This document shows positions 42,336-64,000 of a DNA stretch of 64,000 nucleotides, piece after piece (position 1 is the stretch's first letter; each line of letters begins with the position of its first letter). The position numbers were made by a program, and so were the translations under genes. This stretch comes from Minisyncoccota bacterium. GTDB lineage: Bacteria; Patescibacteriota; Minisyncoccia; Minisyncoccales; JAQTPW01. The notes under the pieces were generated by a model. The model saw nothing but the letters and a program-made list of their open reading frames with translations. It did not search any database and was not told the origin of the DNA. The stretch lies in contig JAQTPW010000001.1 in NCBI GenBank assembly GCA_028712565.1, positions 2,653 through 66,652 on the forward strand. Reading direction: 5' to 3'.

Positions 42336-42400
42336 TGTTTTTAGAGATAAATTATCGCAAAAATTTTTCCATTTTTTTTGCTACAATATCTGTAGCACCA

Positions 42401-42437
42401 TATATTATTAATATAGCTATCGCCTAGATAATAATAT
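42401..42437 (+). promoter_or_regulatory. Conserved hairpin/promoter-like motif, copy B
   Basis: TATATTATTAAT-ATAGCTATCGCCTAG-ATAATAATAT. Confidence 0.55.
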
Positions 42438-42614
42438 TTGATATTTACTGATTAAAATTAGTGATGTTTTATTGTAGCTTGTTTTTTTAATTATTTTTTG
42501 TTAAAATCTTAAATTGAAAGTTAAATTTTCTATATGCCCCGCAGTAGAATTTTGAACCCTACGGAGGCGTATAAAATTTTTTCTAAATTTTAATTCAAAA
42601 TTCACTGACAGGGT

Positions 42615-46332: not shown

Positions 46333-46479
46333 CTTATTACTCCTCACTATTGTTCGGAGCAAAATAATCCGAATATCATCCGAATCTTATCCGAATGCTA
46401 CGAATTTAATTTGCAGATTCGGATTTCATTCGTAGATTCGTATTATTTTTAGCGACGAGCAGCAGCGAGGAGTAATGAG
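46333..46479 (+). repeat. Insertion E2 in 23S domain I, homologous to intergenic repeat E1
   Basis: 24-bp imperfect stem CTTATTACTCCTCACTATTGTTCG / CGACGAGCAGCAGCGAGGAGTAATGAG. The interior aligns with 38805-38890. Confidence 0.85.
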
Positions 46480-46731
46480 GGTTGCAAGGAAATGTCGTCG
46501 GGAGCACCCCTCACGTTGAATTAAATTAATGTGAGGGGTTAACCCGAGGGAGAATATTTAGATAAAGTTTTGCTAGTTAAATGCCCCTGGAACGGGCAAC
46601 CATAGAAGGTAATAGTCCTGTAAACGAAAACAACTTTATGCTCCTTGATGTTTTTCTTAAGTACCACGGGAAAAGAAAGTCCTGTGGGAAACAGGCCCAA
46701 CTATAAGGGCCAAGACTAAATACTCAATCTC

Positions 46732-46770
<39 letters not shown>

Positions 46771-46828
46771 CAGGGAGGTGATCCCGGTGAAATAGAAACT
46801 GAAACCATATGCTCACAAAAAGTTCGAG

Positions 46829-46979
46829 CCCCGTTACAATTTTGCTCCTGACATGGCGAGCGAAGCGCGAGTGGCGAATAGCCACATCCTTTTATGGGCG
46901 CAGCGCTTCGCCCAGCAAGGGTGCACCTATTCGGTGCGCGCGCTGCGCAAAATAATTCAGAGGCAAAATTGTAACGGGG
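46829..46979 (+). repeat. Intervening sequence T3 replacing the tip of 23S helix 25 (CCCCGTTA family arms)
   Basis: Perfect 17-bp arms CCCCGTTACAATTTTGC / GCAAAATTGTAACGGGG around a GC-rich core. Flanked by ..GTTCGAG and TGAGAGCGTAC.., which correspond to E. coli ..GTGGGAGC[H25]GTGACTGCGTACC. Confidence 0.85.
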
Positions 46980-49125: not shown

Positions 49126-49156
<31 letters not shown>

Positions 49157-49373
49157 AAACCCCAAGATTAGGATTCATAGATTCCAGAGAGACCATCTGG
49201 TCGATAGACTGCCGGTGTAAGCTCCGTAAGGGGTTAAGCCAAGCAGCACTAATAAATCATTACACAAATCTTGACTAGCAATTAATGATCATTGGAAAAT
49301 AATTTAACTAATATTTTAAACCTTAGCGAAAGGCGGCGCGTCAAACGTGCCAGGCCTCGTGAGAGGGCGCTGA

Positions 49374-49561: not shown

Positions 49562-50356
49562 ATGATGAAGCGTTTTTCTAAAATAAAATTAGGCGCAATT
49601 GGCATTTTGTTAATCGCGTTTTTTGTTTTAGTGAATCTGCCAGGTTTTTCCAAAGGAATCCGAAATTTTTTCTATTCGTTTTCTTCCCCAATCCAGAGAA
49701 TGCTATTGGGAGCAGGGGATAATATGTCAAATTTTTTTGCCGGAATTTTTAGCTACGGAAATTTAAAAAAAGAAAATGATAATTTTAAAGTTCAAATTCT
49801 TGAGAAATCTGCCGAAATCTCCGGCCTTCAAGAATTAAAAAAAGAGAACGAGGCTTTAAAAGCGGGTTTGGTCCAGAATCTTCAAAAAGATTTTAAATTA
49901 ATTTTTGCTAATATTGTCAGCAAGGGAATTGGAGATTTTATTCTGATTAATAAGGGTTTAAATGACGGGGTAAAAAAAGACATGCCTGTAATTACGGAAC
50001 AGAAATTTTTACTAGGTAAAATTTACGAAGTTTATAAAAATTATTCGAAAGTATTGCTAATTACGAATAAAGACAGCTCCTTTGATGCTGAAATTTTATC
50101 AGCTGAGGCAACAGGAGTTTTAAAAGGCAAGGGAAATTTTAACGCAGTTTTGGATTCGGTCCCCCAGGAAGCGGAAATAAAAACCGGGGATTTGGTTTTT
50201 ACAACTTCTTTGGGCGACGTTTTCCCCGAAGGCCTTTTAGTAGGCGAAATAAAATCCCTTAATAAAAACGATGTCAGTTCTTTTCAGCAAGCTGAAATAA
50301 AACCGGCATTTGATAAGGCGTTGAAAAGCAGCGTTTTTATAATTTCTAACTTTTGA
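49562..50356 (+). CDS. mreC: Rod shape-determining protein MreC
   Basis: 264 aa. N-terminal TM, coiled coil, ..GDLVFTTSLGDVFPEGLLVGEI... Confidence 0.88.
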   Translation: MMKRFSKIKLGAIGILLIAFFVLVNLPGFSKGIRNFFYSFSSPIQRMLLGAGDNMSNFFAGIFSYGNLKKENDNFKVQILEKSAEISGLQELKKENEALKAGLVQNLQKDFKLIFANIVSKGIGDFILINKGLNDGVKKDMPVITEQKFLLGKIYEVYKNYSKVLLITNKDSSFDAEILSAEATGVLKGKGNFNAVLDSVPQEAEIKTGDLVFTTSLGDVFPEGLLVGEIKSLNKNDVSSFQQAEIKPAFDKALKSSVFIISNF

Positions 50357-50667
50357 TGCTGAAAAATATTTTAATTCTAATTTTTGGCTTATACATTTTA
50401 GTTTTGTTTCAAACAAGCCTTTTTGCTGATTTTCGCGCTTTTGGATTCCCCCCAAATTTTATTTTGGTTTTTGTAATTTTGTTTAATTTCTTTGAAAGTC
50501 CCGCGAAGAAATTTGGCTTAATTTCTGCAATTTTCGGCGGCTTTTTTTTGGATGTTTTTTCTGCCAGCTTCTTTGGATTTCACATTTTATTTCTATTGGT
50601 CTGCGCAGTTTTTATTAAATTTATAGTTAGGAGATATGTTAGAATTCCAGGTATCCAAAAATATTAA
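50353..50667 (+). CDS. mreD: Rod shape-determining protein MreD-like small membrane protein
   Basis: 104 aa, 3-4 TM segments. Assignment rests on its position between mreC and pbp2. Confidence 0.6.
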   Translation: MMLKNILILIFGLYILVLFQTSLFADFRAFGFPPNFILVFVILFNFFESPAKKFGLISAIFGGFFLDVFSASFFGFHILFLLVCAVFIKFIVRRYVRIPGIQKY

Positions 50668-52609
50668 AAAAAGAAGAATTTCATTTGCCTACCAAAACGA
50701 TATCGAGCCGCACGAGGCGCTTTTGGATAAATTAGCCCAAAGAAAAGAAGAAGAATTTGGCCTTACGGGGAAAAAATTTGAAGTTCCCCTTTCAAAAAAG
50801 GTTTTGATTGGTTTTTTGATTGGGTCTCTTTCTTTATTTTTATTTTTATTTTTGAAAACTGCCCAGCTTCAGATATTAGAAGGAAAAAAGTATTCAATGC
50901 TTTCTCAAAAAAATAAATTCATAAATTCCCAGATTCAGGCAGAAAGAGGCGTAATTTATGATAAAAATTTAAATCAATTGGTTTTTAACGTTCCGGCATT
51001 CGACCTAATTTTCAATAAAGCGAATTTTCCAGAAGATGGGGCAGAAAAAAACCGAATAATTGCGGAAGTTTCTCAAATAATCGGGGAGAGCATTGAAAAC
51101 GTGGAGGAAAAAATAGAAAATAACGAGAATCCGGTTTTGGAAAATATCCCGCATCAGGTTTTAATTGTTTTGGAAACAAAAATGGATGATCTTTTAGGAT
51201 TTGAAATTCGCAAAGACTGGGTTAGGGAGTATAAAGATAGTGAAAATTTTTCTCATTTGTTGGGGTATTTGGGAAAAATAACAGCCGCTGAATTAAAAGA
51301 TTCTAACTATACGGTTTTTGATTGGGTGGGAAGGGCAGGTATTGAAAAAAAGTATGAGGACTTTTTAAAGAAAGATCCTGGAGAATTGCAGATTGAAAGA
51401 GATGCTTTGGGGAATGAAATTTCTCGAGAAATTATTTCTCAGCCAGAATCCGGGAAAAGTTTAGTCCTTTGGGTGGATTCTGGTTTGCAAAATAAGATAA
51501 CCGAAGCGCTAAAGACAATTTTGAGGGAAAAAGGATTAAAAAATGCAGCAGCTGTTGCTTTGGATCCAAAAACTGGAGGGATTTTATCTATGGTTTCTTT
51601 GCCAAGTTATGATAATAATCTTTTTAACAAAGGTTCCAACGCCGATGAGCTTTTAAGCCTTCTTTCTAACCCCAATGAGCCGCTTTATAATTTAGCAATA
51701 GGTGGGCAATTCCCAAGCGGGTCAACTATCAAACCGTTGATTGCTTCGGCTGCTCTGCAGGAAAAAATTATATCTCCTAATAAAAAAATAAATGATAGCA
51801 AAGGAAATATTGAAATTCCCAATCCGTGGGATCCTGATTCGCCGACTATAAAGGGCGACTGGACAATTCATGGCTTGACTGATATGCGAAAAGCACTTGC
51901 CGAATCATGCAACGTTTATTTTTATACAATAGGCGGAGGCTATGGCGACCAAAATGGGTTGGGGATCACCAAAATTAAAAAATACCTTGAGCTGTTCGGT
52001 TGGGGAAAGAAAACTAATATAGATTTGCCGGGAGAAGTAGATGGATTCTTGCCTACGCCGGAATGGAAAAAAACAAAAACCGGAAATGACTGGCTTTTAG
52101 GAGATACTTATAATGTTTCTATTGGTCAGGGAGATGTTTTGGTAACTCCGCTTCAGATGGCGGCGAGCTTTCTTCCAATAGTAAATGGGGGCAAGCTTTT
52201 GGAGCCGCAGGTTGTTCAAAAAATAGTTGATTCTAAAAAAAATACGATTGAAAGTTTTGGAACGAAAATTATCAGAGAAAATTTCATAGATCCGGAAAAT
52301 TTAGAAATTGTTAGAGAAGGAATGCGGCAAGGCGTAACCGGGGAAAACAGCCCGCACGCGTCGTCCGTAACATTAAATACCTTGCCCGTAGCTGCCGCCG
52401 CAAAAACCGGAACTGCCGAAACGGGAAAAGTGATAAACGGCGAAAGAATTTATAACCACTGGATTACAGTTTTTGCGCCGTACGACGACCCGCAAATTGT
52501 ATTAACTATAGTTTTTAAAGATGTAAAAGGACTCGGCGGGACTACCTTGCCTGCGGCAAAAGAAATTTTGCAGTGGTATTTTACCGAAGGCGGAGGCGCT
52601 TCGAAATAG
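50636..52609 (+). CDS. mrdA: Penicillin-binding protein 2 (transpeptidase)
   Basis: 657 aa. SxxK (PSGSTIKP), SxN-like region, KTGTAE. Confidence 0.9.
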   Translation: MLEFQVSKNIKKRRISFAYQNDIEPHEALLDKLAQRKEEEFGLTGKKFEVPLSKKVLIGFLIGSLSLFLFLFLKTAQLQILEGKKYSMLSQKNKFINSQIQAERGVIYDKNLNQLVFNVPAFDLIFNKANFPEDGAEKNRIIAEVSQIIGESIENVEEKIENNENPVLENIPHQVLIVLETKMDDLLGFEIRKDWVREYKDSENFSHLLGYLGKITAAELKDSNYTVFDWVGRAGIEKKYEDFLKKDPGELQIERDALGNEISREIISQPESGKSLVLWVDSGLQNKITEALKTILREKGLKNAAAVALDPKTGGILSMVSLPSYDNNLFNKGSNADELLSLLSNPNEPLYNLAIGGQFPSGSTIKPLIASAALQEKIISPNKKINDSKGNIEIPNPWDPDSPTIKGDWTIHGLTDMRKALAESCNVYFYTIGGGYGDQNGLGITKIKKYLELFGWGKKTNIDLPGEVDGFLPTPEWKKTKTGNDWLLGDTYNVSIGQGDVLVTPLQMAASFLPIVNGGKLLEPQVVQKIVDSKKNTIESFGTKIIRENFIDPENLEIVREGMRQGVTGENSPHASSVTLNTLPVAAAAKTGTAETGKVINGERIYNHWITVFAPYDDPQIVLTIVFKDVKGLGGTTLPAAKEILQWYFTEGGGASK

Positions 52610-52675
52610 ATTTAAAGTAGACGTATTCCCCCTTAATTTTTATTAGATCGAATATAATAATATTTTGTAAAATGC

Positions 52676-52715
52676 GTATATTACTAACATAGCTATCGCC
52701 AAGATAGTAATATAT
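52676..52715 (+). promoter_or_regulatory. Conserved hairpin/promoter-like motif, copy C
   Basis: GTATATTACTAAC-ATAGCTATCGCCAAGA-TAGTAATATAT. Abuts or overlaps ATG 52714 of the PaaX-like gene. Confidence 0.6.
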
Positions 52716-53304
52716 GATATACGAAAGTATGAGTAAATATAAATATTATTTTAGAAAACCAAGATCGGAAATTATAAAAGATTTTTTAAACACGCTACTA
52801 GTTGCGGGCACCATTACGATTGCCGCTTCTTCTCCTTATTTTATTGTTAATTTATTAAAAGCCAATAAAAGTTTTAGGCGGTATCCAAAGCCGAGGATTG
52901 CCGATACTTTCGCGCGTTTGAAAAGGGAAGGATTAGTAGAAACCGTACGGCGTAATGGACAAATTTATATAAAACTTACTGATAAGGGAGAAAAGAAAGC
53001 CGGTTTTTACCAAATTAATAGTTTGAAAATAAAAAAACCGAAAAAATGGGATGATAAATGGAGAATTGTTATTTTTGATATTTCTGAGCTAAAAAGAAGC
53101 CACCGGGAAGCTTTTCGAGGAAAATTAAAGGAATTAGGATTTAAATCTCTTCAAAAAAGCGTTTGGGTGCATCCTTTCCAATGTAAAGATGAGATAGCGC
53201 TCCTGCGTGATTTTTTCGGTTTGGAAAAAAATGATATTCGCATAATAGTTGCCGAAGAAATCGAAAATAGCGCCGATTTAAAGAAATATTTTCTTCTTAA
53301 TTAA
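52714..53304 (+). CDS. PaaX-like regulator: TM segment + winged helix + PaaX/Cas2-fold domain (paralog 1)
   Basis: 196 aa. ..FARLKREGLVETVRRNGQIYIKLTDKG.. (wHTH) and ..WDDKWRIVIFDISELKRSHREAFRGKLKELGFKSLQKSVWVHP... The start may be ATG 52729. Confidence 0.65.
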   Translation: MIYESMSKYKYYFRKPRSEIIKDFLNTLLVAGTITIAASSPYFIVNLLKANKSFRRYPKPRIADTFARLKREGLVETVRRNGQIYIKLTDKGEKKAGFYQINSLKIKKPKKWDDKWRIVIFDISELKRSHREAFRGKLKELGFKSLQKSVWVHPFQCKDEIALLRDFFGLEKNDIRIIVAEEIENSADLKKYFLLN

Positions 53305-53335
53305 CACATACGGTTAATTAACTACAAAATAACAA

Positions 53336-53375
53336 AATATTGTTAACATAGCTATCGCCTTGTTAATAATATATT
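53336..53375 (+). promoter_or_regulatory. Conserved hairpin/promoter-like motif, copy D
   Basis: AAATATTGTTAAC-ATAGCTATCGCC-TTGTTAATAATATATT. Confidence 0.55.
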
Positions 53376-53416
53376 GTTTTGTTGTTTGTTAATACTAGAT
53401 ATTGGATATATTGAAT

Positions 53417-53449
53417 AAAAAGTCCCGAGCGGTTAATTCCGTCGGGACT
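53417..53449 (-). terminator. Terminator of the minus-strand orphan gene
   Basis: AGTCCCGA (53421-53428) / TCGGGACT (53442-53449). An A-run on the + strand gives a T-run on the - strand. Confidence 0.7.
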
Positions 53450-53453
53450 TTAA

Positions 53454-53804
53454 TTAAAGGAGGCGAGGTAATATTATTTCTCGGCAACAATCAACGTTAA
53501 AGTCAAAAATTGGTGCTATTTTTGGTTGGCGAGCAATCCACTCCCAAGATTTTCTATTCCAGTATTTCAAGGCCATAAGCGCCAGTTCAGAAGATACACT
53601 GTAAACTAATTTGGGGCCATAGTTTTCTTCTGGATTTATTTCTGAATCAAGATTTATTGCTGGACCAACGACTATTTGTTTTGGTCCTTCAGCTTGAAAA
53701 ATTATTCCAATCCATCCTTTGCGTATTTCCTCAGGGATGCCGGGCCCTTCTGGAGTTTTAACTATCGCTATTAACTTCTTATTTGTCATTTTTCCTTCCT
53801 CCAA
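53454..53804 (-). CDS. Hypothetical protein (orphan), strong SD
   Basis: 116 aa. On its own strand GGAGGAAGGAAAA precedes the ATG. It is a lone minus-strand gene in a + strand array. Confidence 0.55.
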   Translation of the reverse strand: MEEGKMTNKKLIAIVKTPEGPGIPEEIRKGWIGIIFQAEGPKQIVVGPAINLDSEINPEENYGPKLVYSVSSELALMALKYWNRKSWEWIARQPKIAPIFDFNVDCCREIILPRLL

Positions 53805-53953
53805 AATTTATTAAAAGTGCCAAAATTCCGAGATTTTCTCGGTATTTTGATATTAAAATAATAAAATTAAAAGTCAAATTTTCCACTGTTTTTAACTTGT
53901 CTAAGCCAAAAATTTAAAGTAGAATAAAATATCGACTATTTGTGTTAGAAACT

Positions 53954-55417
53954 ATGGCGAATATTGACGAAATAAGAAAAATAAGAATACAAAAGTTAGA
54001 AGCTATAAAGAAAGCCGGGATTTTGGCGTATCCGGAAATAACGAAAAGAACCCACGAAATAGCCAGTGCCCTTAAGGATTTTTCAGCTTTGAATAAAAGT
54101 AAAAAGGAAATAATTTTGTCCGGCAGGATAAAGTCCTTAAGAATTCATGGAGGAGCCACTTTTTTGAATATGGAAGACGGGACCGGAACAATTCAGGCTT
54201 TTTTCAATAAAAATCGGATAGGGGAAAACGGCTACGATTTTTTTACTGAAAATTTTGACATTGGAGATTTCGTTGAAATCAGAGGAATTTTATTTGAGAC
54301 AAAAACCGGAGAAAAAACCTTAGAAGCCGCAGATTTTAAAATGCTGGCAAAGTCACTCCTGCCCCTTCCTGAAAAATGGCACGGCATCCAAGACGTCGAG
54401 GAGAGATTCAGGAAGAGATATTTGGATTTGATTTTTAACAAAGATGTAAAAGAAAAGTTCATTCTTCGTGCCAGGATAATAAAAGAAATCAGAAATTTTT
54501 TTGAAAATGAAGGTTTTATCGAGGTTGAAACTCCGATTTTGCAACCCATATACGGGGGGGCGACCGCCCGGCCATTTAAAACCCATTTGAACGCACTGGA
54601 CGCCGATTTGTATTTAAGGATTTCACCCGAGCTTTATTTAAAAAGGCTTTTAATTGGAGGATTTGAAAAAGTTTTTGAAATTGGGAAATGTTTCCGAAAC
54701 GAGGGTTTAGACCGGCAGCACAATCCTGATTTTACGGAATTGGAATTTTACTGGGCTTATACCGATTATAAAAATTTGATGAATTTCACCGAAAAATTTT
54801 TCTCAACTTTGCTCAAAAATTTGTTCGGAAGCCAGAAAATAAACTATGAAGGCAGAGAAATAGATTTTAAAATTCCCTGGCAGAGGATAGAATACAATGT
54901 CTTATTCAAAAAATATGCCGATATAAATCTGGAGGAAATAAACACTGAAGCATTGAGGAAAAAAGCAAAAGAAATTTTGGGTTCCTCCCCGAAAGGCGAG
55001 AAAGCGGAAATTGCCGACGAGATTTATAAAAAGCTCTGCCGGCCCAAGATAATAGAACCCACCTTTTTGATTCATCATCCGAAGGGTTCGGCTCCTTTGG
55101 CAAAGGAAATTGAAGGAGATCCTTCCGAACTGGCGAGATTCCAGTTGGTTGCCGCGGGCGGTATGGAGCTGGTTAATGCTTTTTCAGAGCTTAACGATCC
55201 AATAGAGCAGAGAGCTAGGTTCAAAGAGCAGGAAAAAATATTAAAAGAAGGTTTTGAAGAGGCGCAGAGAATGGATGAAGATTTTATTGAGGCTTTGGAG
55301 TACGGCATGCCGCCGGCAGCCGGATTTGGCATGGGAATCGACAGATTGGTGGCTTTATTAACCGATTCGCATAGTTTGAGAGAAGTTATATTGTTTCCGA
55401 CAATGAGGAAAAAATAA
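53954..55417 (+). CDS. lysS: Lysine--tRNA ligase (class II)
   Basis: Class II motifs: ..FIEVETPILQPIYGGA.. (motif 2 region) and ..GFGMGIDRLVALL.. (motif 3). ATG 53954 chosen. Confidence 0.93.
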   Translation: MANIDEIRKIRIQKLEAIKKAGILAYPEITKRTHEIASALKDFSALNKSKKEIILSGRIKSLRIHGGATFLNMEDGTGTIQAFFNKNRIGENGYDFFTENFDIGDFVEIRGILFETKTGEKTLEAADFKMLAKSLLPLPEKWHGIQDVEERFRKRYLDLIFNKDVKEKFILRARIIKEIRNFFENEGFIEVETPILQPIYGGATARPFKTHLNALDADLYLRISPELYLKRLLIGGFEKVFEIGKCFRNEGLDRQHNPDFTELEFYWAYTDYKNLMNFTEKFFSTLLKNLFGSQKINYEGREIDFKIPWQRIEYNVLFKKYADINLEEINTEALRKKAKEILGSSPKGEKAEIADEIYKKLCRPKIIEPTFLIHHPKGSAPLAKEIEGDPSELARFQLVAAGGMELVNAFSELNDPIEQRARFKEQEKILKEGFEEAQRMDEDFIEALEYGMPPAAGFGMGIDRLVALLTDSHSLREVILFPTMRKK

Positions 55418-55442
55418 TATTTAGAATTTAGAAATTAGCAAT

Positions 55443-56711
55443 ATGTTAGATATAAAATACATAAGAGAAAATCTGCAAGTTGTAAAAGAAGGCGCAAAAA
55501 ATAAAGGCGTTGATATTGACATTGGCCGGCTTTTGGAAGTGGACAAAAAAAGACGCGAAGTTCTTCAGGCATTAGAAGATATGCGGGCCCAAAAAAACAA
55601 GGCGTCGAAAGAAATTCCTCAAATGAAAGATGAAAAAGAAAGGGGAAAAATAATTTTAAAAATGCGGGAATTAGATATAAACAGCGACAGGTTAAATCAG
55701 GAATTAAAATCATCTGAAGAGGAATTTAATAGTTTGATGGCAAAAATTCCCAATATCCCTTTGGAAGGCGTGCCCGTGGGAAAAGATGATAGCGAAAATG
55801 TTGTTTTAAAAGAAGTGGGGGAAAGGACAAAATTCGATTTTACCCCCAAAAATTATTTAGATATTGCCGAAAAATTAGACATAATTGATGTTGACCGGGC
55901 TGCGAAAATTTCAGGAACCAGATTTGGATTTTTAAAAGGAGAGGCGGCTTTATTGGAAGTTGCTTTAATTAATCTCGTTTTTGAAAATTTGATCAAAGAG
56001 GGATTTATTCCAATTATTCCTCCTGTTATGCTAAAACCGGAAATGGCGTGGGGCATGGGGTATTTGGAGCAAACGAACAGCGAAGAGGCATATCATTTAG
56101 AAGCAGATAATTTATATTTGACTGCAACCGCTGAACAATCATTGGGAACCATGCATTCGGGGGAAATTTTTGACGAAAAAGATTTGCCAAGAAGATATTT
56201 GGGATTTTCCACTTGTTTCAGGAGAGAAGCAGGAGCTTATGGAAAAGATACAAAAGGAATCTTTAGAGTCCATCAGTTTGATAAAATTGAGATGTTCAGT
56301 TATTGCAAGCCGGAACATTCTCTAAACGAGCACGAATTTCTTTTGGAAAGAGAAGAAAAACTAATGCAGGCCTTGGAAATTCCGTATCACGTTTTAAAAA
56401 TTTGTACTGGAGATCTTGGGACTCCGGCTGCGGCAAAATATGATATAGAAGCTTGGATTCCCAGCGAAAACCGCTACCGAGAGACCCATTCAACTTCAAA
56501 TTGCACCGATTTTCAAGCCAGAAGATTAAATATTCGCTATAAAGATAAGACGGGAAAATTAAACTTTGTTCATACTTTAAACGGTACAGCTTTTGCCATC
56601 GGCAGAATTTTAATTTCTATTATTGAGAATTACCAGCAAAAAGATGGGAGTATAAAAATACCAAAAGCTCTTCAACAATATTTTAATCTTAAAATGATTA
56701 AAAATAAGTAG
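55443..56711 (+). CDS. serS: Serine--tRNA ligase
   Basis: 422 aa. N-terminal coiled-coil arm, ..FRREAGAYGKDTKGIFRVHQF.., ..LNGTAFAIGRILISIIEN... Confidence 0.93.
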   Translation: MLDIKYIRENLQVVKEGAKNKGVDIDIGRLLEVDKKRREVLQALEDMRAQKNKASKEIPQMKDEKERGKIILKMRELDINSDRLNQELKSSEEEFNSLMAKIPNIPLEGVPVGKDDSENVVLKEVGERTKFDFTPKNYLDIAEKLDIIDVDRAAKISGTRFGFLKGEAALLEVALINLVFENLIKEGFIPIIPPVMLKPEMAWGMGYLEQTNSEEAYHLEADNLYLTATAEQSLGTMHSGEIFDEKDLPRRYLGFSTCFRREAGAYGKDTKGIFRVHQFDKIEMFSYCKPEHSLNEHEFLLEREEKLMQALEIPYHVLKICTGDLGTPAAAKYDIEAWIPSENRYRETHSTSNCTDFQARRLNIRYKDKTGKLNFVHTLNGTAFAIGRILISIIENYQQKDGSIKIPKALQQYFNLKMIKNK

Positions 56712-56713
56712 AG

Positions 56714-57550
56714 ATGGAGGAAAAGAAAATTTCTGTTAATAGCTTAACTATTAACTACAAAATTACAGAAGAGGAAGATCCTCTTTTAAGTTTTGCCGGG
56801 ATTAAATTCTATCCTGAAAAGGTCCCCATAAAGGGAACGATTTTGATATTGCATGGGTGGGGCGGATCTTCTGATTCTTGGATTGAAGTTCAAAAAAATT
56901 TAATAAAAAACGGATATAAAACCATAGTTCCTGATTTGCCGGGATTTGGAAAGTCAGTGACTCCGCTCAAAGCCTGGGGAATTGATGATTATACAGATTT
57001 TGTTTCAAAATTTGCCGAAAAAATAAATTTGACAGGACCTTTCTTTTTGCTCGGCCATTCTTTTGGCGGAAGAATAGCAATAAGATTTGTCTTAAAACAT
57101 CCCGAAAAAATAAAAGGATTAATTTTGTGCGATTCAGCCGGAATAAAACCCAAAATGGGGATAAAAACAATGTTGATTTACTGGACAGCCAAGCTGGGAA
57201 ACGCATTGTTGACGCCAAAACACTTTTCAAGATTTCGGGATTCTGCGCGCAATTTTTTCTACGCAGTTATCCGCCACCGGGATTATGAAAAGGCGGACGG
57301 AGTGATGAAAGAAACGATTATAAAAGTTTTAAATGAAGATTTATTTGCTGATCTCTCCAAAATTAAAACAAAAACACTTTTGGTCTGGGGAAAAAATGAC
57401 AAAATGGTGCCTGTAAAGTATGCCAATGTATTCAAAATAAATATTGAAAACTCCGAATTGGAAATTTTACCAAAAATTGGCCATAGTCCGCACTTGGAAG
57501 TTCCAGATAAATTATCTGAAATTCTTCTCAAATTTTTAAATAAATTTTAA
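56714..57550 (+). CDS. Alpha/beta hydrolase
   Basis: 278 aa. HGWGGS, nucleophile elbow GHSFGG, C-terminal ..IGHSPHLE... Confidence 0.8.
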   Translation: MEEKKISVNSLTINYKITEEEDPLLSFAGIKFYPEKVPIKGTILILHGWGGSSDSWIEVQKNLIKNGYKTIVPDLPGFGKSVTPLKAWGIDDYTDFVSKFAEKINLTGPFFLLGHSFGGRIAIRFVLKHPEKIKGLILCDSAGIKPKMGIKTMLIYWTAKLGNALLTPKHFSRFRDSARNFFYAVIRHRDYEKADGVMKETIIKVLNEDLFADLSKIKTKTLLVWGKNDKMVPVKYANVFKINIENSELEILPKIGHSPHLEVPDKLSEILLKFLNKF

Positions 57551-57553
57551 AAA

Positions 57554-58948
57554 ATGCCCGTTTTTTTAAATATAATTGGACTTCTGCTATTTATAAAGCT
57601 GTTTCTTTTCTGGCTGTGGCTTTGGCAATTGAAAGAATATCATATTGGGCGTTTTCTAGCCCATTTTGAAACTCAGGCAATAACTAAAATTATTTCCAGC
57701 TTTTGGAGGATAAAACTTCCTAAATTTACCGGAAAAACTGCCGTAATTTTTATTTCTGAAATCATTGCTGCAACAGCGCTCTCCCTATATTTTAAATTCG
57801 CAATTCTATTTTTAATTTTATTTGCTCCGGTTTTTTCCTCGGCAATTGTTCTGCTTTTTCAAATTCCAACAGTTTTTTTGAGAAACCGGATTATTAAAAA
57901 AGCCAAGATAAAAATTAGGCAATTCCCAAATCTTTTGGTAATAGGCATTACGGGAAGTTATGGCAAAACTTCAACAAAAGAATTTTTGTATTCGATTTTA
58001 TCGGAAAAATTCAAAAATAAGGTTTTAAAGACGAAAGAACACCAGAATTCGGAAATTGGGATTTCCCAGTGCATTTTAGCGGATTTGGAACAAGAGCATG
58101 AAATTTTTATAGTTGAAATGGGAGCTTATAACAGAGGGGGAATAAAAATGCTTTGCGATATTGTAAGGCCAAAAATAGGCATTTTAACTGGAATTAATGA
58201 GCAGCATATGTCGACATTCGGATCATTAGAAAATATAATTAAAGGAAAGTATGAGTTAATTGAATCATTGCCCGCAGACGGAGTTGCATTTTTCAATGCG
58301 AAAAATAAATATTGTTTAGAACTTTATAATGAAACTCTTCGACGGCTCCCAGTGAAAGCGATTTTGTACGGACAAAATGCTACTTTTTTTGGCGAGGAGA
58401 ATATTTTAGGAGCAATGGCAGCCGCAAAAGAATTAGGAATGGCTGACGCTGAAATTAAAGCCGCGGTCGATAGAATTGAAAACAAGATGCCGGGAATTAA
58501 AATTAAAGAGGGGATTGGCGGCTTAAAAATTATAGATGCTACTTATTCGGCAAACCCGGATGGAGTAATTGCTAATTTGGAATATTTAAAAAATAATTTT
58601 TCCGGGAAAAAGATTATTGTTATGCCATGCTTAATAGAACTTGGTAAGGCGTCAAAAGAAGTTCACACAAGAATCGGTAAAAAAATCGGAGAGGTCTGTG
58701 ATTTAGCAATAATTACAACAAAAGATTATTTTAAAGAAATTAAAGAAGCCGCCTTCGCTTCCGCCATCGCTGAAGCTATGGCGGGCAAAGAAGCTACGGC
58801 GAGCCAAAGGAAGCCAGAAATTCTGTTTCTCGAAAATCCGAAAGAAATTTTTGCGAAAATAATGGGCGTTGTGAAAGAGGGAGATGCAGTTCTTTTGGAA
58901 AGCAGAGTGCCTAAAGAGGTGGTTGAACAGTTAACAGGAAGCAGTTAA
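57554..58948 (+). CDS. murF: UDP-MurNAc-tripeptide--D-Ala-D-Ala ligase with N-terminal membrane extension
   Basis: 464 aa. About 110-aa hydrophobic N-terminus, Mur ligase P-loop ITGSYGKTSTKEF. Contains a GC-rich in-frame insert near the C-terminus. Confidence 0.85.
   Translation: MPVFLNIIGLLLFIKLFLFWLWLWQLKEYHIGRFLAHFETQAITKIISSFWRIKLPKFTGKTAVIFISEIIAATALSLYFKFAILFLILFAPVFSSAIVLLFQIPTVFLRNRIIKKAKIKIRQFPNLLVIGITGSYGKTSTKEFLYSILSEKFKNKVLKTKEHQNSEIGISQCILADLEQEHEIFIVEMGAYNRGGIKMLCDIVRPKIGILTGINEQHMSTFGSLENIIKGKYELIESLPADGVAFFNAKNKYCLELYNETLRRLPVKAILYGQNATFFGEENILGAMAAAKELGMADAEIKAAVDRIENKMPGIKIKEGIGGLKIIDATYSANPDGVIANLEYLKNNFSGKKIIVMPCLIELGKASKEVHTRIGKKIGEVCDLAIITTKDYFKEIKEAAFASAIAEAMAGKEATASQRKPEILFLENPKEIFAKIMGVVKEGDAVLLESRVPKEVVEQLTGSS
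58747..58815 (+). repeat. GC-rich repeat inserted in frame in murF
   Basis: GCCGCCTTCGC..GAAGCT..GCTACGGCGAGCCAAAGG encodes AAFASAIAEAMAGKEATASQRK. It shares blocks with the 42-bp unit at 59622-59742. Confidence 0.75.
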
Positions 58949-58960
58949 CAATTAACAAAA

Positions 58961-58991
58961 AAATGCCGTCGTCAGAAGACGGACGGCATTT
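58961..58991. terminator. Bidirectional terminator between murF and the minus-strand orphan
   Basis: AAATGCCGTCGTC-AGAA-GACGGACGGCATTT (13 bp, one bulge), with an A-run before and a T-run after. Confidence 0.8.
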
Positions 58992-59012
58992 ACGACGAAG
59001 TGCTTAAACGTA

Positions 59013-59228
59013 TTATTTCTTCTCTATGACTTTAACTCGGAACCAAAATGTTTCGTATGGGTTTCTCCAACCGGTCGGAATCATAATACATGCGCAGCCG
59101 TATTGTTTTAGACTTTCAAATAGCTGCTCCATCGATTCCGGGATTTTCGATAGATCCATACCCGTAATGTCTGGCGTCAAAGACATTGTTAAGCTTCCGT
59201 CTTTTTCTGCTACTATTTTCGCATTCAT
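59013..59228 (-). CDS. Hypothetical small protein (orphan), strong SD
   Basis: 71 aa. On its own strand AAGGAGGTATGAA precedes the ATG. Lone minus-strand gene. Confidence 0.55.
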   Translation of the reverse strand: MNAKIVAEKDGSLTMSLTPDITGMDLSKIPESMEQLFESLKQYGCACIMIPTGWRNPYETFWFRVKVIEKK

Positions 59229-59266
59229 TTCATACCTCCTTACAGAAAAATAATATTACATAAATA

Positions 59267-60739
59267 ATGTTTTGTCAATATTTAAACCCAAAACCAATAT
59301 CGATTTCTTTGTCTCCTAATACTGAAAAGGATGATATCCTATTGGCTTTTAAGTTGCTTTGGAAACCTTGGCGATGGAAATTCAGCGTAAATCAGCGTAA
59401 CAATCAGCGTCAATCAGCTTCTACGATTTTAGAAGAGGAATTTAAAAAATATTTGGGAGTAAAATATGCCATATCATTTAACAGCGGGAGGTCGGCGTTG
59501 ATGGCAATATTGGCTGCTCTTTTCGGAGAGCAGGCATCCTCCGAAGCCTTGGCGAAGGAGGATGAGGAGGTTCTTTTACAAGCCTTCACTTGTAACGCAG
59601 TTCCAAATCCGGTTATTTGGTCCCGCCTTCGCGAGGCCGAAGCTCGCTACGGCGAGGCAAAGGCCCGCCTTCGCGAGGCCGAAGCTCGCTACGGCGAGGC
59701 AAAGGCCCGCCTTCGCGATGACGCTTCGGCGAGGCAAGCAGGCTTGAAACCTATTTATGTAGATTGCAACGAAAATACATTTAACATTGATCCAGAAGAT
59801 TTAAGGCGTAAGATTACGTCAAACAGCCGCGCCGTAATAGTCCAGCACACTTTCGGTTTGCCCGCAGAAATGGATGAAATTATAAAAATTTGTCAGGCAC
59901 ATAATTTAATATTAATTGAAGATTGCGCGCATTCTTTAGGTGCTACCTATAAAGGAAAAAAGATCGGAACCTTCGGCAGAGTTTCATTTTTCAGTTTTTC
60001 CAGAGATAAAGTAATTTCTTCAGTTTACGGCGGAATGGTAGTTACTTCTGATGATGAACTTGCAAAAAAAATTAAGGAATACCAGGAAAGAATCGGTTAT
60101 CCTTCATATTTTTGGATTCTTCAGCAATTATTGCACCCTGTATTAATGAATTGGCTTATTTTGCCAACATATAAATATTTTGGAAAATATTTATTGATTT
60201 TATTCCAATGGCTTCACATTTTTTCAAAAGCCGTCCATTGGAAGGAAAAGAGGGGGCAAAAACCCTGTTATTTTCCAAAGCGTTTACCAGATGCCTTGGC
60301 AATTTTGGCTCAAAACCAATTTCGGAAATTGGAAAAATTCAACCGGCATCGCCGGGAAATCGCCGAATTTTATAATCGCGAATTAGCCGATACCAGCTAC
60401 CAGCTACCAGTTACCAGCGACGGCGACATTTTCCTTCGTTATGCAATAAAACATCCGAACGCTCATCAAATTATTCAGAAGGCATGGAGTCATAATCTAT
60501 TGGTTGGGGATTGGTATACAACGCCGATTGCTCCGCATGATACTAAATTAGAAAAAATGCAATATACTTTAGGGAGTTGCCCAAATGCGGAAAAATTGGC
60601 AAAAATTACATTAAATTTGCCGACTCATATTAATATTTCGGTGAAAGATGCCCAAAAAATCGTAGACTTTTTAAAAAAAATAAGTAAAAACAATAAAGAC
60701 CATAATACGATTTCCACGGCCGTAGAAAAAGTATTATAA
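59267..60739 (+). CDS. DegT/DnrJ/EryC1/StrS-family PLP aminotransferase carrying several in-frame repeat insertions
   Basis: 490 aa, against my recollection that this family is usually about 370-400 aa. ..ISFNSGRSALMAIL.., ..LIEDCAHSLGATYKGKKIG.., ..FFSFSRDKVIS.. (PLP Lys context). Confidence 0.85.
   Translation: MFCQYLNPKPISISLSPNTEKDDILLAFKLLWKPWRWKFSVNQRNNQRQSASTILEEEFKKYLGVKYAISFNSGRSALMAILAALFGEQASSEALAKEDEEVLLQAFTCNAVPNPVIWSRLREAEARYGEAKARLREAEARYGEAKARLRDDASARQAGLKPIYVDCNENTFNIDPEDLRRKITSNSRAVIVQHTFGLPAEMDEIIKICQAHNLILIEDCAHSLGATYKGKKIGTFGRVSFFSFSRDKVISSVYGGMVVTSDDELAKKIKEYQERIGYPSYFWILQQLLHPVLMNWLILPTYKYFGKYLLILFQWLHIFSKAVHWKEKRGQKPCYFPKRLPDALAILAQNQFRKLEKFNRHRREIAEFYNRELADTSYQLPVTSDGDIFLRYAIKHPNAHQIIQKAWSHNLLVGDWYTTPIAPHDTKLEKMQYTLGSCPNAEKLAKITLNLPTHINISVKDAQKIVDFLKKISKNNKDHNTISTAVEKVL
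59381..59418 (+). repeat. In-frame short tandem repeat (A)ATCAGCGTAA
   Basis: TTCAGCGTAAATCAGCGTAACAATCAGCGTCAATCAGC encodes FSVNQRNNQRQS. Same unit as in the 16S leader (39211-39250). Confidence 0.8.
59525..59570 (+). repeat. In-frame GC-rich palindromic insert
   Basis: CCTCCGAAGCCTTGGCGAAGGAGG folds as CCTCC/GGAGG plus GCC/GGC. Encodes ..ASSEALAKEDE.. between conserved AILAAL and EVLLQAFTC. Confidence 0.65.
59622..59742 (+). repeat. In-frame 42-bp GC-rich tandem repeat (2 full units plus a diverged third)
   Basis: CCCGCCTTCGCGAGGCCGAAGCTCGCTACGGCGAGGCAAAGG at 59622-59663 and 59664-59705, with a diverged copy to about 59742. Encodes RLREAEARYGEAKA x2. Confidence 0.9.
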
Positions 60740-60740
60740 T
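60705..60740. repeat. Left copy of 33-bp direct repeat (3' end of the DegT-family gene)
   Basis: TACGATTTCCACGGCCGTAGAAAAAGTATTATA (60708-60740) versus 61281-61313, one mismatch. Contains the palindrome ACGGCCGT. Confidence 0.9.
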
Positions 60741-60749
60741 TAAATAAAT

Positions 60750-61280
60750 ATGAAATTTCCAGTTACCGATAGATTTTTATGGGATTTATATGATTTTCTT
60801 GAAAAGGCAGGTGATATTTATGATGTTTTTTTGGCACGACCCTGGAAAGAAGTTTGGTCTCCGGAACTTCACAAATTTAGATATGAATGGAAGAAAAAGA
60901 AGGATCGAAAATTATTCAGTCGGCTTGTTTATTATTTAAAAAAGAAAGGGTATATAAAGACTAAAAATTTAGAGGAAAAAGAAGCTGTTTTGTTAACAAG
61001 GAAAGGAGCCGATAAGATTTTGAAATTGAAACTTAAAGAAAGTAATAAAAAGAAAAGACCAGACGGAAAGTGGCAAATGGTAATTTTTGATATCCCCGAA
61101 AGAAAGCGTTTTTTAAGAGATTTACTTAGAGAAAATCTTTATCTTTTAGGCTATCAACTGTTGCAACAAAGTATTTGGGTTTGTCCATATGATGTTTCAT
61201 ATAAAACAGAAATAATTCTCAATAAATATTCCCTTGATCAATACGTAAAAACATTTTTAATTAAAGAAATAGAAGTATAG
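60750..61280 (+). CDS. PaaX-like regulator with wHTH + PaaX/Cas2-fold domain (paralog 2)
   Basis: 176 aa. ..LVYYLKKKGYIKTKNLEEKEAVLLTRKG.. and ..PDGKWQMVIFDIPERKRFLRDLLRENLYLLGYQLLQQSIWVCP... Confidence 0.65.
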   Translation: MKFPVTDRFLWDLYDFLEKAGDIYDVFLARPWKEVWSPELHKFRYEWKKKKDRKLFSRLVYYLKKKGYIKTKNLEEKEAVLLTRKGADKILKLKLKESNKKKRPDGKWQMVIFDIPERKRFLRDLLRENLYLLGYQLLQQSIWVCPYDVSYKTEIILNKYSLDQYVKTFLIKEIEV

Positions 61281-61313
61281 TACGATTTCCACGGCCGTAG
61301 AAAATGTATTATA
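61281..61313. repeat. Right copy of the 33-bp direct repeat
   Basis: TACGATTTCCACGGCCGTAGAAAATGTATTATA, starting immediately after the stop of the PaaX-like gene. Confidence 0.9.
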
Positions 61314-61361
61314 TGATTTGTTTAAATTTTTCTTCGTAAGCATTTTATTTGTAAGTATTTT

Positions 61362-62021
61362 ATGTGTATGAATACTTTATTGAATAGTTTGTGGATAGTG
61401 CTTAGTTATCTTCTCGGCGCAATTCCTTTTGGGTTTTTAATTTCGAAATATTCAAAAAATATAGATATCCGTAAAGTTGGTAGAAAGCAAATAGGAGCCA
61501 GTAATGTTTATCATACGGTTGGGCATTTAGAGGGCGCGCTGACTGGAGTTTTAGATGTTGCAAAGGGTTGGATTGTAGTTTTTTTGGCGCAGAAATTCCA
61601 TTTCCCAATTTCGATTCAGCTATTTTCAGGTTTGGTTGCAATCATCGGCCATAACTGGCCAATTTATCTCAATTTTTTCGGGGGAAGGGGAGTGGCGACA
61701 ACTCTGGGAGCGACCTTAGCTTTAAATCCAATTATATTTTTTTATTCGGCGATTCCACTCGCTGTAATCGGTATTATTTGGGATGGGGCACCCGCCACTA
61801 TACTTTTTTTGGTTGCATATTTTATTCTTGCAGATTATAAGCATGAACCAAAAATTTTTTCTGTTTTTATAATTTTCGTCTTTGTAATTATTTTATTGAA
61901 AAGAATTTCTATAATAAAAGAAGATTTGTTGCAAAAAAAATTGAGTTTTAGCCTGGTTTTAAATCGGCTTATATTTGACCGCGCCGAAGGAATAAAAAAT
62001 TTTCGATGGACAAAAAAGTAA
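61362..62021 (+). CDS. plsY: Glycerol-3-phosphate acyltransferase PlsY
   Basis: 219 aa. ..YLLGAIPFGFLISK..DIRKVGRKQIGASNVYHTVG... The start may be ATG 61368. Confidence 0.85.
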   Translation: MCMNTLLNSLWIVLSYLLGAIPFGFLISKYSKNIDIRKVGRKQIGASNVYHTVGHLEGALTGVLDVAKGWIVVFLAQKFHFPISIQLFSGLVAIIGHNWPIYLNFFGGRGVATTLGATLALNPIIFFYSAIPLAVIGIIWDGAPATILFLVAYFILADYKHEPKIFSVFIIFVFVIILLKRISIIKEDLLQKKLSFSLVLNRLIFDRAEGIKNFRWTKK

Positions 62022-62024
62022 ATT

Positions 62025-63095
62025 ATGGATTTATCAATTTCAGAAATATCAGATAAAAATACTTGGGAGGAATTTTTGGCAGGTATTAAAGAAAAAACTT
62101 TTCTGCAGTCTTGGAATTGGGGAGAATTTCAGAAAAAAATGGGAAACTCCACCCAAGGTGGGTCCGCCTCGGGCGGAAAAATTTGGAGATTAGGGATATA
62201 CGAAGAAAGAAATTTAATTGCAGCTATTTTAGTTTCTAAGGTGGTCGCAAAGAGAGGAATTTTTCTGTTACTACAGCATGGGCCAAATGTAAAAAATGAA
62301 AGATCAAATATCAAAAATCAAATAATGGCTGTTTTATTGGGGAAATTAAAAGAAATTGGCAAAGAAGAAAAAGTTGATTTTATACGGATTGCACCATTGT
62401 TTGATGATTCAAAAGAAAATCTAAAAATATTTCAAGATTTGGGATTTCATAAATCTCCAATGCATGCCAATGCCTATGAGGCGACGTGGAAATTAGATAT
62501 TTCCGTCTCCGCGGAAGAAATTTTGAAAAACATGCGGAAAACCACTAGGTATTTGATAAGGCAGGCAGAGAAAAATCCGGAAATTAGCATTGAAACCAGT
62601 ATAAATTTTCGTGATTTAAATCTTTATTTTGATTTAAATCGTCAGGTTGCCAAGCGGCAAAATTTTACGCCGTTTTCTGAAGAATATATAAAAAATGAAT
62701 TTAATTCATTCATAAATGACAATGAGGTATTGTTACTATTTGGGAAATATAAAAATGAGCTAGCCGCTGCAGCTATGGTAATTTTTTGGCAGGGGATTGG
62801 CTTTTACCATCAAGCGGCATCTCTTTCAAAATTTGCAAAACTTTCTATTCCTTATCTGTTGCAATGGGAAGCAATAAAAGAAGCAAAAAAAAGAGGATGT
62901 ATTTTATATGATTTTTGGGGGTTCACTGATCCTGAAAAATACCCTAAACATCCCTGGGCAGGGCCCACTTTATTTAAAATGGGATTTGGAGGTTTTGCAA
63001 AAGAACATATAAAAACCCAGGATTTCCCGCTTTCAAAAAAATACTGTTTAATTTATATTTTTGAGCAGATTCGAAAAATAAAAAGAGGATTTTAG
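62025..63095 (+). CDS. FemAB-family peptidoglycan interpeptide-bridge aminoacyltransferase
   Basis: 356 aa. ..FLQSWNWGEFQKKMG.., ..RYLIRQAEKN.., ..GFYHQAAS... Carries a small GC-rich insert. Confidence 0.8.
   Translation: MDLSISEISDKNTWEEFLAGIKEKTFLQSWNWGEFQKKMGNSTQGGSASGGKIWRLGIYEERNLIAAILVSKVVAKRGIFLLLQHGPNVKNERSNIKNQIMAVLLGKLKEIGKEEKVDFIRIAPLFDDSKENLKIFQDLGFHKSPMHANAYEATWKLDISVSAEEILKNMRKTTRYLIRQAEKNPEISIETSINFRDLNLYFDLNRQVAKRQNFTPFSEEYIKNEFNSFINDNEVLLLFGKYKNELAAAAMVIFWQGIGFYHQAASLSKFAKLSIPYLLQWEAIKEAKKRGCILYDFWGFTDPEKYPKHPWAGPTLFKMGFGGFAKEHIKTQDFPLSKKYCLIYIFEQIRKIKRGF
62148..62177 (+). repeat. In-frame GC-rich double-hairpin insert in the femAB-like gene
   Basis: CCACC-CAA-GGTGG and TCCGCC-TCG-GGCGGA. 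Encodes ..STQGGSASGG.. between the conserved ..EFQKKMG and KIWRLGIY... Confidence 0.65.
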
Positions 63096-63101
63096 TATTT
63101 T

Positions 63102-63959
63102 ATGAAAAGAAATTTCCGGAAACCGTACCGAATTAAAAAGAAAAAATCAATATTGAAAAGCCGTTTTTTTTGGCTTCCAGTTTTAATTTTTACTACAGTT
63201 GGAGGGATCTGCTATTTCATTTTTTTCTCATCGTTTTTCCAGATAAAAGAAGTTAAGATTTCCGGCAATCAAAAAATCGCAACTAATAAATTAGAAAGCT
63301 TGGTTCAAAGCCAGCTTACAAAAAAAATCGCCCTTTTCCCCACGAAAAGCATATTTTTGGCGAATTTAGGAAAAATACAAAAAATGGGTCAGGATAATTT
63401 TCCGCAAATTGCAAAAATCAGCTTCAAAAAAGATTTCCCAGATATTATATTAGTAAACGTTGAAGAGAGGAATCCGGTTGCGGTTTTGACCCATACCCTG
63501 AATTCTTCTTCGACCGCTCTATTCGCAACAACAAGTGCGGAAGTTTTAGAGGAAAATTTTTTTATTGATAAAGAAGGGATAGTTTTTGAAAAAGTTCTGG
63601 ATCCAGATTCTAATTTGCTAAAAATAGAAAACCAGATTTTGCCAAACAAACTGCGATTAGGGGAAAGTGTAATAGAGGAGCCGTTAGTCGCAAAAATTTT
63701 AAATATCGAATCAAAATTGAAAAACGAATTGGAAATCAAAATTGATACGGTTACGATAGTTTCGAGGAAAAGATTAAATGTGAAAGCTGCCGAGGGCTGG
63801 GAAGTTTATTTTAATCCAGAAGGCGATATGGATTGGCAAATTACCGAATTAACGGCGGTTTTGGAAAATAAAATTCCTCCTGAAAAAAGGAAGAATCTTG
63901 GATATATTGATTTAAGGTTTGAAAAAATTTATATTTTCCCTGAAAATTACAACAAATAA
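63102..63959 (+). CDS. ftsQ: Cell division protein FtsQ/DivIB
   Basis: 285 aa. Basic N-terminus, one TM, POTRA start ..FQIKEVKISGNQKIATNKLESLV... Confidence 0.8.
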   Translation: MKRNFRKPYRIKKKKSILKSRFFWLPVLIFTTVGGICYFIFFSSFFQIKEVKISGNQKIATNKLESLVQSQLTKKIALFPTKSIFLANLGKIQKMGQDNFPQIAKISFKKDFPDIILVNVEERNPVAVLTHTLNSSSTALFATTSAEVLEENFFIDKEGIVFEKVLDPDSNLLKIENQILPNKLRLGESVIEEPLVAKILNIESKLKNELEIKIDTVTIVSRKRLNVKAAEGWEVYFNPEGDMDWQITELTAVLENKIPPEKRKNLGYIDLRFEKIYIFPENYNK

Positions 63960-64000
63960 CTTACTCAATTTTATACACGAAAATTGAATACCCGATTTTT

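Follow-up and report, generated by a model that had tools for sequence, protein, structure and literature searches.

A PaaX-like gene bracketed by palindromes in a patescibacterial cell-wall cluster: a candidate autoregulated repressor and its putative operators

Why should a small gene lie between two nearly identical repeats, the first of which runs into the 3' end of its neighbour? The question is raised by a 64,000-nucleotide stretch of contig JAQTPW010000001.1 (referred to here as the window) from a Minisyncoccota bacterium, a member of the Patescibacteria or candidate phyla radiation (CPR). The gene in question, X1, encodes a protein with a winged helix-turn-helix (wHTH) and a Cas2-like domain and follows a DegT-family aminotransferase gene; a paralogue, X2, lies elsewhere in the window. 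A preliminary description of this DNA had taken such genes for small insertable cassettes that move with target duplication or by site-specific recombination. Here we favor, with moderate confidence, a different reading of the sequence, in which X1 is an autoregulated CPR mini-PaaX repressor whose palindromic operators bracket its own gene within a cell-wall and division cluster.

Repeat units and proteins of X1 and X2

The elements that frame X1 are the following.

60701-60738: X1 upstream palindrome, arms CATAATACGATTTCCACGG and CCGTAGAAAAAGTATTATA, 15/19 arm pairs; overlaps the final 12 codons of the DegT open reading frame (ORF)
60735-60740, + strand: TATAAT, a hexamer of -10 type on the right-hand edge of that palindrome, 9 nt 5' of the X1 ATG
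60750-61280, + strand: X1, 176 aa: N-terminal helical region, then wHTH and Cas2-like PaaX_M domain; no PaaX_C domain
61276-61313: X1 downstream palindrome, arms TATAGTACGATTTCCACGG and CCGTAGAAAATGTATTATA, 15/19 arm pairs; the left arm holds the X1 stop codon TAG; ~48 nt upstream of plsY

The 33-bp repeat reported in the preliminary description is present, though its first copy (TACGATTTCCACGGCCGTAGAAAAAGTATTATA) lies at 60706-60738 rather than 60708-60740, 2 nt lower than had been given. As described there, it spans the final 10 sense codons (TISTAVEKVL) and the TA of the stop codon of the DegT ORF (59267-60739), recurs with one mismatch at 61281-61313, directly 3' of the TAG of X1, and is accompanied by the TATAAT 9 nt before the X1 ATG. 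A match to the 33-mer arose in 0 of 100 dinucleotide-preserving shuffles, which rules out a chance origin. The full extent of the direct repeat is 37 nt (60702-60738 and 61277-61313, 35/37 identical). What had been overlooked is that every repeat unit, at X1 and at X2, is itself an imperfect 38-bp palindrome; both X1 units are centred on ACGG/CCGT, and the X1-type palindrome occurs in the 64-kb window only as these two flanking copies.

X2 had likewise been described as bracketed by direct copies of another motif, and this too was borne out: the 38-nt repeat, different from that of X1, is found at 52678-52715 and 53337-53374 with 84% identity.

52677-52714: X2 upstream palindrome, arms TATATTACTAACATAGCTA and TCGCCAAGATAGTAATATA, 15/19 arm pairs
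52729-53304, + strand: X2, 191 aa, wHTH and PaaX_M, between the PBP2 and LysRS genes
53336-53373: X2 downstream palindrome, arms AATATTGTTAACATAGCTA and TCGCCTTGTTAATAATATA, 14/19 arm pairs; the neighbouring next gene is convergent

The longest X2 ORF begins at 52714, and homologues of X2 measure 190-193 aa; judged by these, a start at 52729 (191 aa, as in homologues) is more likely than one at 52714.

Profile searches and a fold model both uphold the earlier assignment of the two proteins to a wHTH plus PaaX/Cas2 fold. PaaX_M (PF20803, the Cas2-like central domain of PaaX) matches X1 with E = 1.6e-20 and X2 with E = 7.8e-21, well over its gathering score, and TIGR02277 (PaaX) aligns from model position 40 to X1 residues 59-169, covering the end of the wHTH and the central domain, with a score of 28-41 bits against a cut-off of 264. 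PaaX_C (PF08223) was not matched in X1 or X2, the protein stopping after the Cas2-like domain; nor did the Pfam PaaX winged helix (PF07848) match either at E <= 1, and the profile search gave weak matches to the TrmB and DUF6293 winged helices. Cas2 profiles (TIGR01573 and PF09827) reached 19.9-22.3 bits, under their cut-offs of 24.5 and 23.8. X1 and X2 share 34% identity, confined to the Cas2-like domain. In the AlphaFold (AF2) model of X1, with a predicted local distance difference test score (pLDDT) of 78, the C-terminal beta-alpha-beta-beta-alpha-beta domain is confident and the wing region is of low confidence; the model matches VapD, Cas2 and E. coli PaaX (8a39). A PDB sequence search with the family profile returned no meaningful match. 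A protein 100% identical to X1 is encoded in a Candidatus Pacebacteria metagenome-assembled genome, and the superfamily comprises ~5,500 clusters at 50% identity (E <= 0.001), nearly all of them stand-alone proteins of 170-200 aa, with 1,375 matches to the X2 subfamily. A role in a defence system is not backed, PADLOC having given weak Cas2-type matches alone.

Recurrence across CPR loci and the empty site

X1 relatives were sampled at 84 loci, with proteins 40-79% identical to X1, and palindromes of the same design lie on both sides of the gene in ~65 of these. The X2 subfamily has the palindrome-gene-palindrome arrangement, with its own centres, in all five loci examined, so that flanking repeats are the family-wide trait that had been anticipated. 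The general form is TATA-N6-TTT-N4-CG/CG-N4-AAA-N6-TATA. As these palindromes were chosen by palindrome score, we put weight on position-based enrichment and on a count of compensatory changes. Centres scoring at least 15/19 number 170 among 678,639 positions, and 108 of the 170 lie within the two ~190-nt flanks of the gene. In 23 of 73 scored downstream copies the palindrome begins at the modal position, 4-5 nt short of where the stop codon ends; the upstream palindrome lies close to the ATG (8-14 nt away) or farther from it (50-86 nt).

The sites also vary with the protein. The centre differs by locus (ACGGCCGT, ACGATCGT, GCGATCGC, AAAGCTTT and others), as do the arms; the upstream and downstream copies of one locus share 80% identity, against 45% between loci; paralogues within one genome each have a distinct palindrome; and half-site classes track protein clades. 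Conservation is highest in the outer arms (positions 16-18 from the centre), the T/A tract (8-10) and the CG core, and loosest at positions 5-7. Of 72 upstream copies, 18 have a perfect TATAAT at the right edge on the gene strand and 1 has it on the other strand. Because they vary with the protein, and because the upstream one carries a -10 box, the palindromes look like operators and not like attachment (att) sites or target duplications.

Palindromes could also act in RNA, as hairpins on a polycistronic transcript that serve as RNase III-type processing sites, stabilizers or terminators and cut out or insulate the X mRNA. The long, near-perfect stems flank the ORF exactly, the downstream one starting in the stop codon, and compensatory changes keep them paired, all of which would suit such hairpins. 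Yet G:U is not favored over A:C on the gene strand, the arm mismatches (G:T 100, A:C 90) showing no strand bias; the sequence-conserved centre and outer arms and the paralogue-specific sites point to recognition by a protein; and the upstream copies hold the likely -10 box, so they would be mostly untranscribed from the gene's own promoter. No T-run follows the stems and no + strand terminator was called, which rules out an intrinsic terminator. We regard RNA hairpins as very unlikely.

What a locus without X looks like bears directly on the cassette model. The cluster order SerRS, hydrolase, Mur ligase, [DegT], X, [DegT/PlsY], FemAB, FtsQ is found in 24 of the 84 X-anchored loci, and the conserved neighbours of the family are peptidoglycan and division genes (Mur ligase, DegT, FemAB, FtsQ, PBP2, MurB, Ddl); with PlsY, these are the neighbours of X, and no paa (phenylacetate) genes were found beside it. 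A second sample of 80 further loci was anchored on FemAB, and 617 kb were scanned for all 80: 73 are without X and 7 have it, and all 7 of the latter carry the palindromes. At ~58 junctions lacking X, DegT abuts PlsY (L101, L103 and L147) or abuts or overlaps FemAB (~55 loci). The preliminary description had predicted an empty site in which a single repeat copy joins DegT directly to PlsY. The direct junction exists; the repeat copy does not, as the palindrome is present at the DegT-PlsY or DegT-FemAB junction in 0 of the ~58 loci.

Alignments locate the edges of the module. Between the window and L103, DegT homology (78% nt identity) stops at ~60681 and PlsY homology resumes at ~61388, leaving ~706 bp in place of 24 bp; between L163 and L171, whose flanking genes share 77-83% nt identity, 711 bp in the former replace 56 bp of the latter. 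Because DegT homology to relatives without X stops at ~60681, the last ~19 DegT codons (tail ...HNTISTAVEKVL) are read-through into the module and not a duplicated original DegT end, and the claim that the repeat duplicates the DegT 3' end falls with this. The DegT proteins of these relatives have no TISTAVEKVL tail. Moreover, when the gene before X is Mur ligase or another one, a palindrome of this kind again lies on each side, so the palindrome belongs to X and not to the target. At the DegT-FemAB junction of relatives without X (L171 5950-6010; L095), a GC-rich tail (SYGLQPTHRPSREKHEY) closes DegT and runs over the start codon of FemAB; in L095 the two genes read as a single fused ORF.

Direct repeats around X1, the first overlapping the DegT 3' end, and the same bracketing of X2 had suggested insertion, either with duplication of a target site or through site-specific recombination at a 33-bp site already present at the end of DegT. 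As the empty sites hold no palindrome copy, both mechanisms are removed, and the missing DegT tail in relatives and the palindromes beside other genes also speak against them. Neither gene lists nor screens of the loci examined revealed a recombinase: no recombinase or integrase is found among the Pfam-annotated genes of the 16 loci with gene lists (L001-L011, L172-L176), the other loci having been screened solely against the window's cluster proteins. We find this origin hardly credible. The part of the cassette idea that stands is a discrete unit, present or absent at the same position.

Taken together, the sequence comparisons show a module (site, gene, site) that is inherited, duplicated, gained and lost as a unit. 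They also establish its anatomy and how well this is conserved, the co-variation of site and protein, and the homology to PaaX. Presence of X is scattered on the FemAB tree, and X genes of the cell-wall cluster are interleaved with those of other contexts in the X tree and do not form one clade. These trees and the correlation of X with FemAB identities (below) are not decisive, many losses and several gains not being separable at this divergence.

An autoregulation model and its alternatives

In E. coli, PaaX recognises a 39-bp inverted repeat (TGATTC-N27-GAATCA) and keeps RNA polymerase off its own promoter, which it thereby represses (PMC9493321). We read X1 as a dimeric autoregulated repressor because the span of its palindrome matches the PaaX operator and because TATAAT occurs in the upstream copies. 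In the window, a promoter scan placed TTTCCA-18-TATAAT at 60711-60740, and a TATAAT only 9 nt before the ATG would imply a leaderless or very short-leader X1 mRNA.

In the model we propose, an X1 dimer would recognise the two-fold symmetric 38-bp site, with the Cas2-like domain serving for dimerisation, as in PaaX. Its two winged helices would read the outer arms, ~three helical turns apart, while the Cas2-like core would lie over the conserved centre. The upstream site would hold the -10 box of the gene's own promoter, and its occupancy would shut X1 transcription off (negative autoregulation). The downstream copy, located ~48 nt before plsY in the window and 65-138 nt before femAB in relatives, would precede the next unit (plsY-femAB-ftsQ in the window, femAB-ftsQ in most relatives); when bound, it could control that unit, form a ~575-bp DNA loop with the upstream site, or both. 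X2 would follow the same scheme with its own, different palindrome. Binding, repression and looping by X1, and a signal that it would sense, are what we infer. In the searchable literature (PaaX with Cas2 or Patescibacteria; CPR with palindromic operators), we found no description of the X family or of the bracketed layout.

Sites beyond the two flanks are found in coding sequence of neighbouring genes and, for X2, at two further positions in the window.

L027 5752-5789, L120 3971-4008 and L159 1252-1289: intact DegT-internal palindromes (window hot spot 59380-59440)
59419-59434: possible decayed palindrome (TTCTACGATTTTAGAA) in the window's DegT 5' coding region, from the DegT N-terminal alignment
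41860-41897, + strand: third X2-type motif, ~250 nt past the 16S rRNA 3' end
42401-42438, + strand: fourth X2-type motif, lying 177 nt 5' of a tRNA-editing (YbaK-like) gene

Across homologues, insertions cluster at DegT codons ~30-45, where three lineages have intact in-frame 38-bp palindromes encoding FSTAVEN or FSTIVEN. In L027 and L159 this palindrome in the DegT 5' region is of the same type as that of the local X. One stands at the same DegT spot in L120, which has no X within 13 kb and is the one locus with a solo class-like palindrome among the 73 FemAB-anchored loci without X. A dispersed repeat of the repetitive extragenic palindromic (REP) kind is not supported, given two X1-type copies in the window and one solo copy in those 73 loci. 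Another in-frame palindrome, again of the local X type, lies inside the Mur ligase gene of L065, and others in two further ORFs. The sequence at 59419-59434 may, on weak evidence, be the decayed remnant of a DegT-internal palindrome. The X2-type motif has 4 matches in the window, all on the + strand, against 0.26 expected by chance. Such additional sites in or near cell-envelope genes could act as auxiliary operators, and by analogy the in-frame sites and the extra X2-type motifs would fit a looping repressor.

The window's DegT gene also contains a GC-rich 42-nt tandem repeat of ~2.4 copies, in frame at 59622-59723 and encoding LREAEARYGEAKAR repeats, which is present in 0/16 aligned DegT homologues. 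Mur ligase (~58748-58810) and FemAB (~62150-62180) have similar patches, likewise GC-rich and in frame. These patches look like small insertions tolerated in coding sequence.

The two extra X2-type motif copies bracket a ~500-nt non-coding stretch (41860-42438), and tblastn found no relic PaaX_M gene between them at 41.9-42.4 kb. The stretch contains a structured RNA candidate at 42149-42286, with GGUGGAG/CUCCACC as its closing pair, and after it a hairpin that resembles a terminator and ends at ~42335; the fold z-score is -3.0, with no Rfam family match and no tmRNA called by ARAGORN. Upstream, the 16S rRNA body (39252-40651) is separated from its 3'-terminal helix (41550-41607), and a LAGLIDADG endonuclease ORF (40988-41416) lies between the two; the 16S (39252-41607) thus has an intron-like insertion near its 3' end. 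The 23S rRNA match (46065-49273) is ~280 nt longer than the Rfam model, which probably reflects at least one insertion in the gene. Just past the first long ORF, at 1252-1307, lies a tandem, self-complementary repeat rich in CGTACG (cgtacgcttgtacgtacg...).

Sites beside a gene and inside coding regions are also frequent among parS sites, and X2 has weak wHTH similarity to the archaeal segregation protein AspA (E ~0.1). The palindromes could accordingly be centromeric or nucleoid-organising sites bound by a spreading wHTH protein, as in ParB-parS or AspA systems. We think this highly improbable: genomes have several paralogues with different sites, no ParA-like partner is encoded in the called neighbourhoods (the 16 loci with gene lists), and homology to PaaX is far stronger than that to AspA.

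Several observations count against an autoregulated repressor. In DNA this rich in AT, promoter-like matches turn up no more often than in shuffled sequence. In L001 and at X2, the gene that the downstream site faces is convergent, so this site cannot always be a promoter operator. The PaaX_C ligand domain is lacking, so no signal can be named, and the Asp of the Cas2-type FDIPE motif is invariant in the family and lost in E. coli PaaX. Compensatory double changes between upstream and downstream copies number 58, versus ~9.5 expected, and the upstream site of L025 is a perfect palindrome of 54 bp; palindromy thus appears to be kept beyond what identical reading of half-sites needs. These changes and the 54-bp palindromes suggest either selection for a cruciform or hairpin or the known mutational correction of quasi-palindromes. 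Correlation between the identities of X and those of FemAB is weak (Spearman 0.27), and the presence of X at the DegT-FemAB junction is patchy even among relatives ~80% identical at the nucleotide level. Long arms are a property of one subclass, ATAACCTC/ATAGC, whose upstream copies (L010, L017, L025) have arms reaching 27 nt.

Many of the same observations would be expected of a minimal mobile or exchanged element. Its palindromes would be hairpin or cruciform ends and its wHTH and Cas2-like protein a nuclease or recombinase acting on them, as at IS200/IS605 ends or in RAYT/REP pairs; it would insert without target duplication and excise cleanly. At one site, relatives have the unit complete or not at all, and empty sites have no copy; X is scattered on the FemAB tree, its identities track those of FemAB weakly, and the cell-wall-cluster genes are not one clade; self-complementarity is kept by compensatory changes in palindromes of up to 54 bp; palindromes are inserted in frame in coding regions; the catalytic-type Asp of Cas2 is invariant; and G+C content at third codon positions (GC3) is lower in X1 and X2 than in their neighbour genes. 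Set against this, no near-identical X copies were seen within a genome, same-genome copies being divergent paralogues, and solo palindromes are rare and not dispersed among the FemAB-anchored loci (L120 alone in the 73 without X). The DegT-internal palindromes occupy the same codon in three lineages and match the local X type, which argues for long residence and co-evolution over fresh insertion. IMG/VR, GenBank phages and PLSDB plasmids yielded no relatives, and phage or plasmid cargo was rejected on the same ground. Searches with Pfam, NCBIfam, PADLOC and PHROGs gave only PaaX_M/Cas2-type matches for X1 and X2 and no HUH/Y1 transposase or integrase domain. Among characterised homologues the closest is a plain repressor, and the -10 box of the gene lies within the upstream copy. 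A mobile element is, on balance, unlikely. It is distinctly unlikely that the wHTH and Cas2-like protein would also be a sequence-specific nuclease or recombinase acting on cruciform-forming 38-bp palindromes, making the module a new minimal mobile or self-maintaining CPR element. If a nuclease or recombinase it were, a Cas2-fold protein would act on palindromic DNA repeats outside CRISPR, and a mobile element driven by a Cas2 fold would be of much greater interest.

The autoregulated repressor that we favor would matter for other reasons. Almost nothing is known of transcription control in CPR bacteria, which cannot be cultured on their own. For each family member a candidate cognate site can be read from the genome, since it brackets the gene, and a recognition code could be worked out from the hundreds of natural protein-site pairs that this would make available. 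Family members would be candidates for the regulation of peptidoglycan and division genes, and engineering could draw on them for orthogonal repressor/operator pairs; the family's Cas2-like domain, in a context of site-specific DNA, bears on the relation between Cas2 and PaaX.

Comparison with known systems

In REP-associated tyrosine transposase (RAYT/REP, or REPIN) systems and in IS200/IS605 insertion sequences, a single gene lies between cognate hairpin-forming palindromes, repeats are paralogue-specific, and there is no target-site duplication. The X module resembles them in its gene between cognate palindromes, its repeat family for each paralogue and the lack of target-site duplication. 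Unlike theirs, the X protein is not an HUH/Y1 transposase, the X repeats were not seen in many dispersed copies in the window or the FemAB-anchored loci scanned, and the flanking copies are direct and not inverted, as judged only on the asymmetric X2 motif. Integron cassettes (attC) are likewise small single-gene units with an imperfect palindrome at the 3' end, whereas X has two near-identical palindromes, a putative promoter of its own, no IntI, and empty sites without a site.

With Cas2 and VapD, X shares a ferredoxin-like beta-alpha-beta-beta-alpha-beta fold and a beta1 'hDI' motif with a conserved Asp; it differs in being fused to a wHTH and in scoring below the Cas2 family cut-offs. No cas1 was found in the called neighbourhoods of L001-L011 and L172-L176, where CRISPR arrays were not specifically searched for, and the sole tandem direct repeat in 50000-64000 of the window is the 42-nt unit inside DegT.

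Looping repressors include lambda CI, with OL and OR, and the Gal and Lac repressors, with their intragenic auxiliary operators. X shares with these at least two (for X, putative) cognate sites hundreds of bp apart around the regulated or regulator gene, some of them in coding sequence. The proteins are unrelated, the second site of X is fixed at the regulator's own stop codon, and looping by X would be by analogy.

PaaX itself, the phenylacetyl-CoA-responsive repressor of E. coli and Pseudomonas (PDB 8a39, 3l09), differs from X in several respects. X1 and X2 have ~176-191 aa against ~316 and no PaaX_C effector domain, whereas they have an additional N-terminal helical region of ~55 aa and keep the Cas2-like FDIPE motif that E. 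coli PaaX is without. The neighbours of X are cell-wall and division genes and not paa genes, its sites bracket the gene on both sides, and they are palindromic over all 38 bp, whereas the PaaX operator is so only in its outer hexamers. What the two have in common is a wHTH (in X, only tentatively of PaaX type) followed by a Cas2-like PF20803 domain and a long two-fold symmetric operator, 39 bp in E. coli and, at X1, a putative site of 38 bp.

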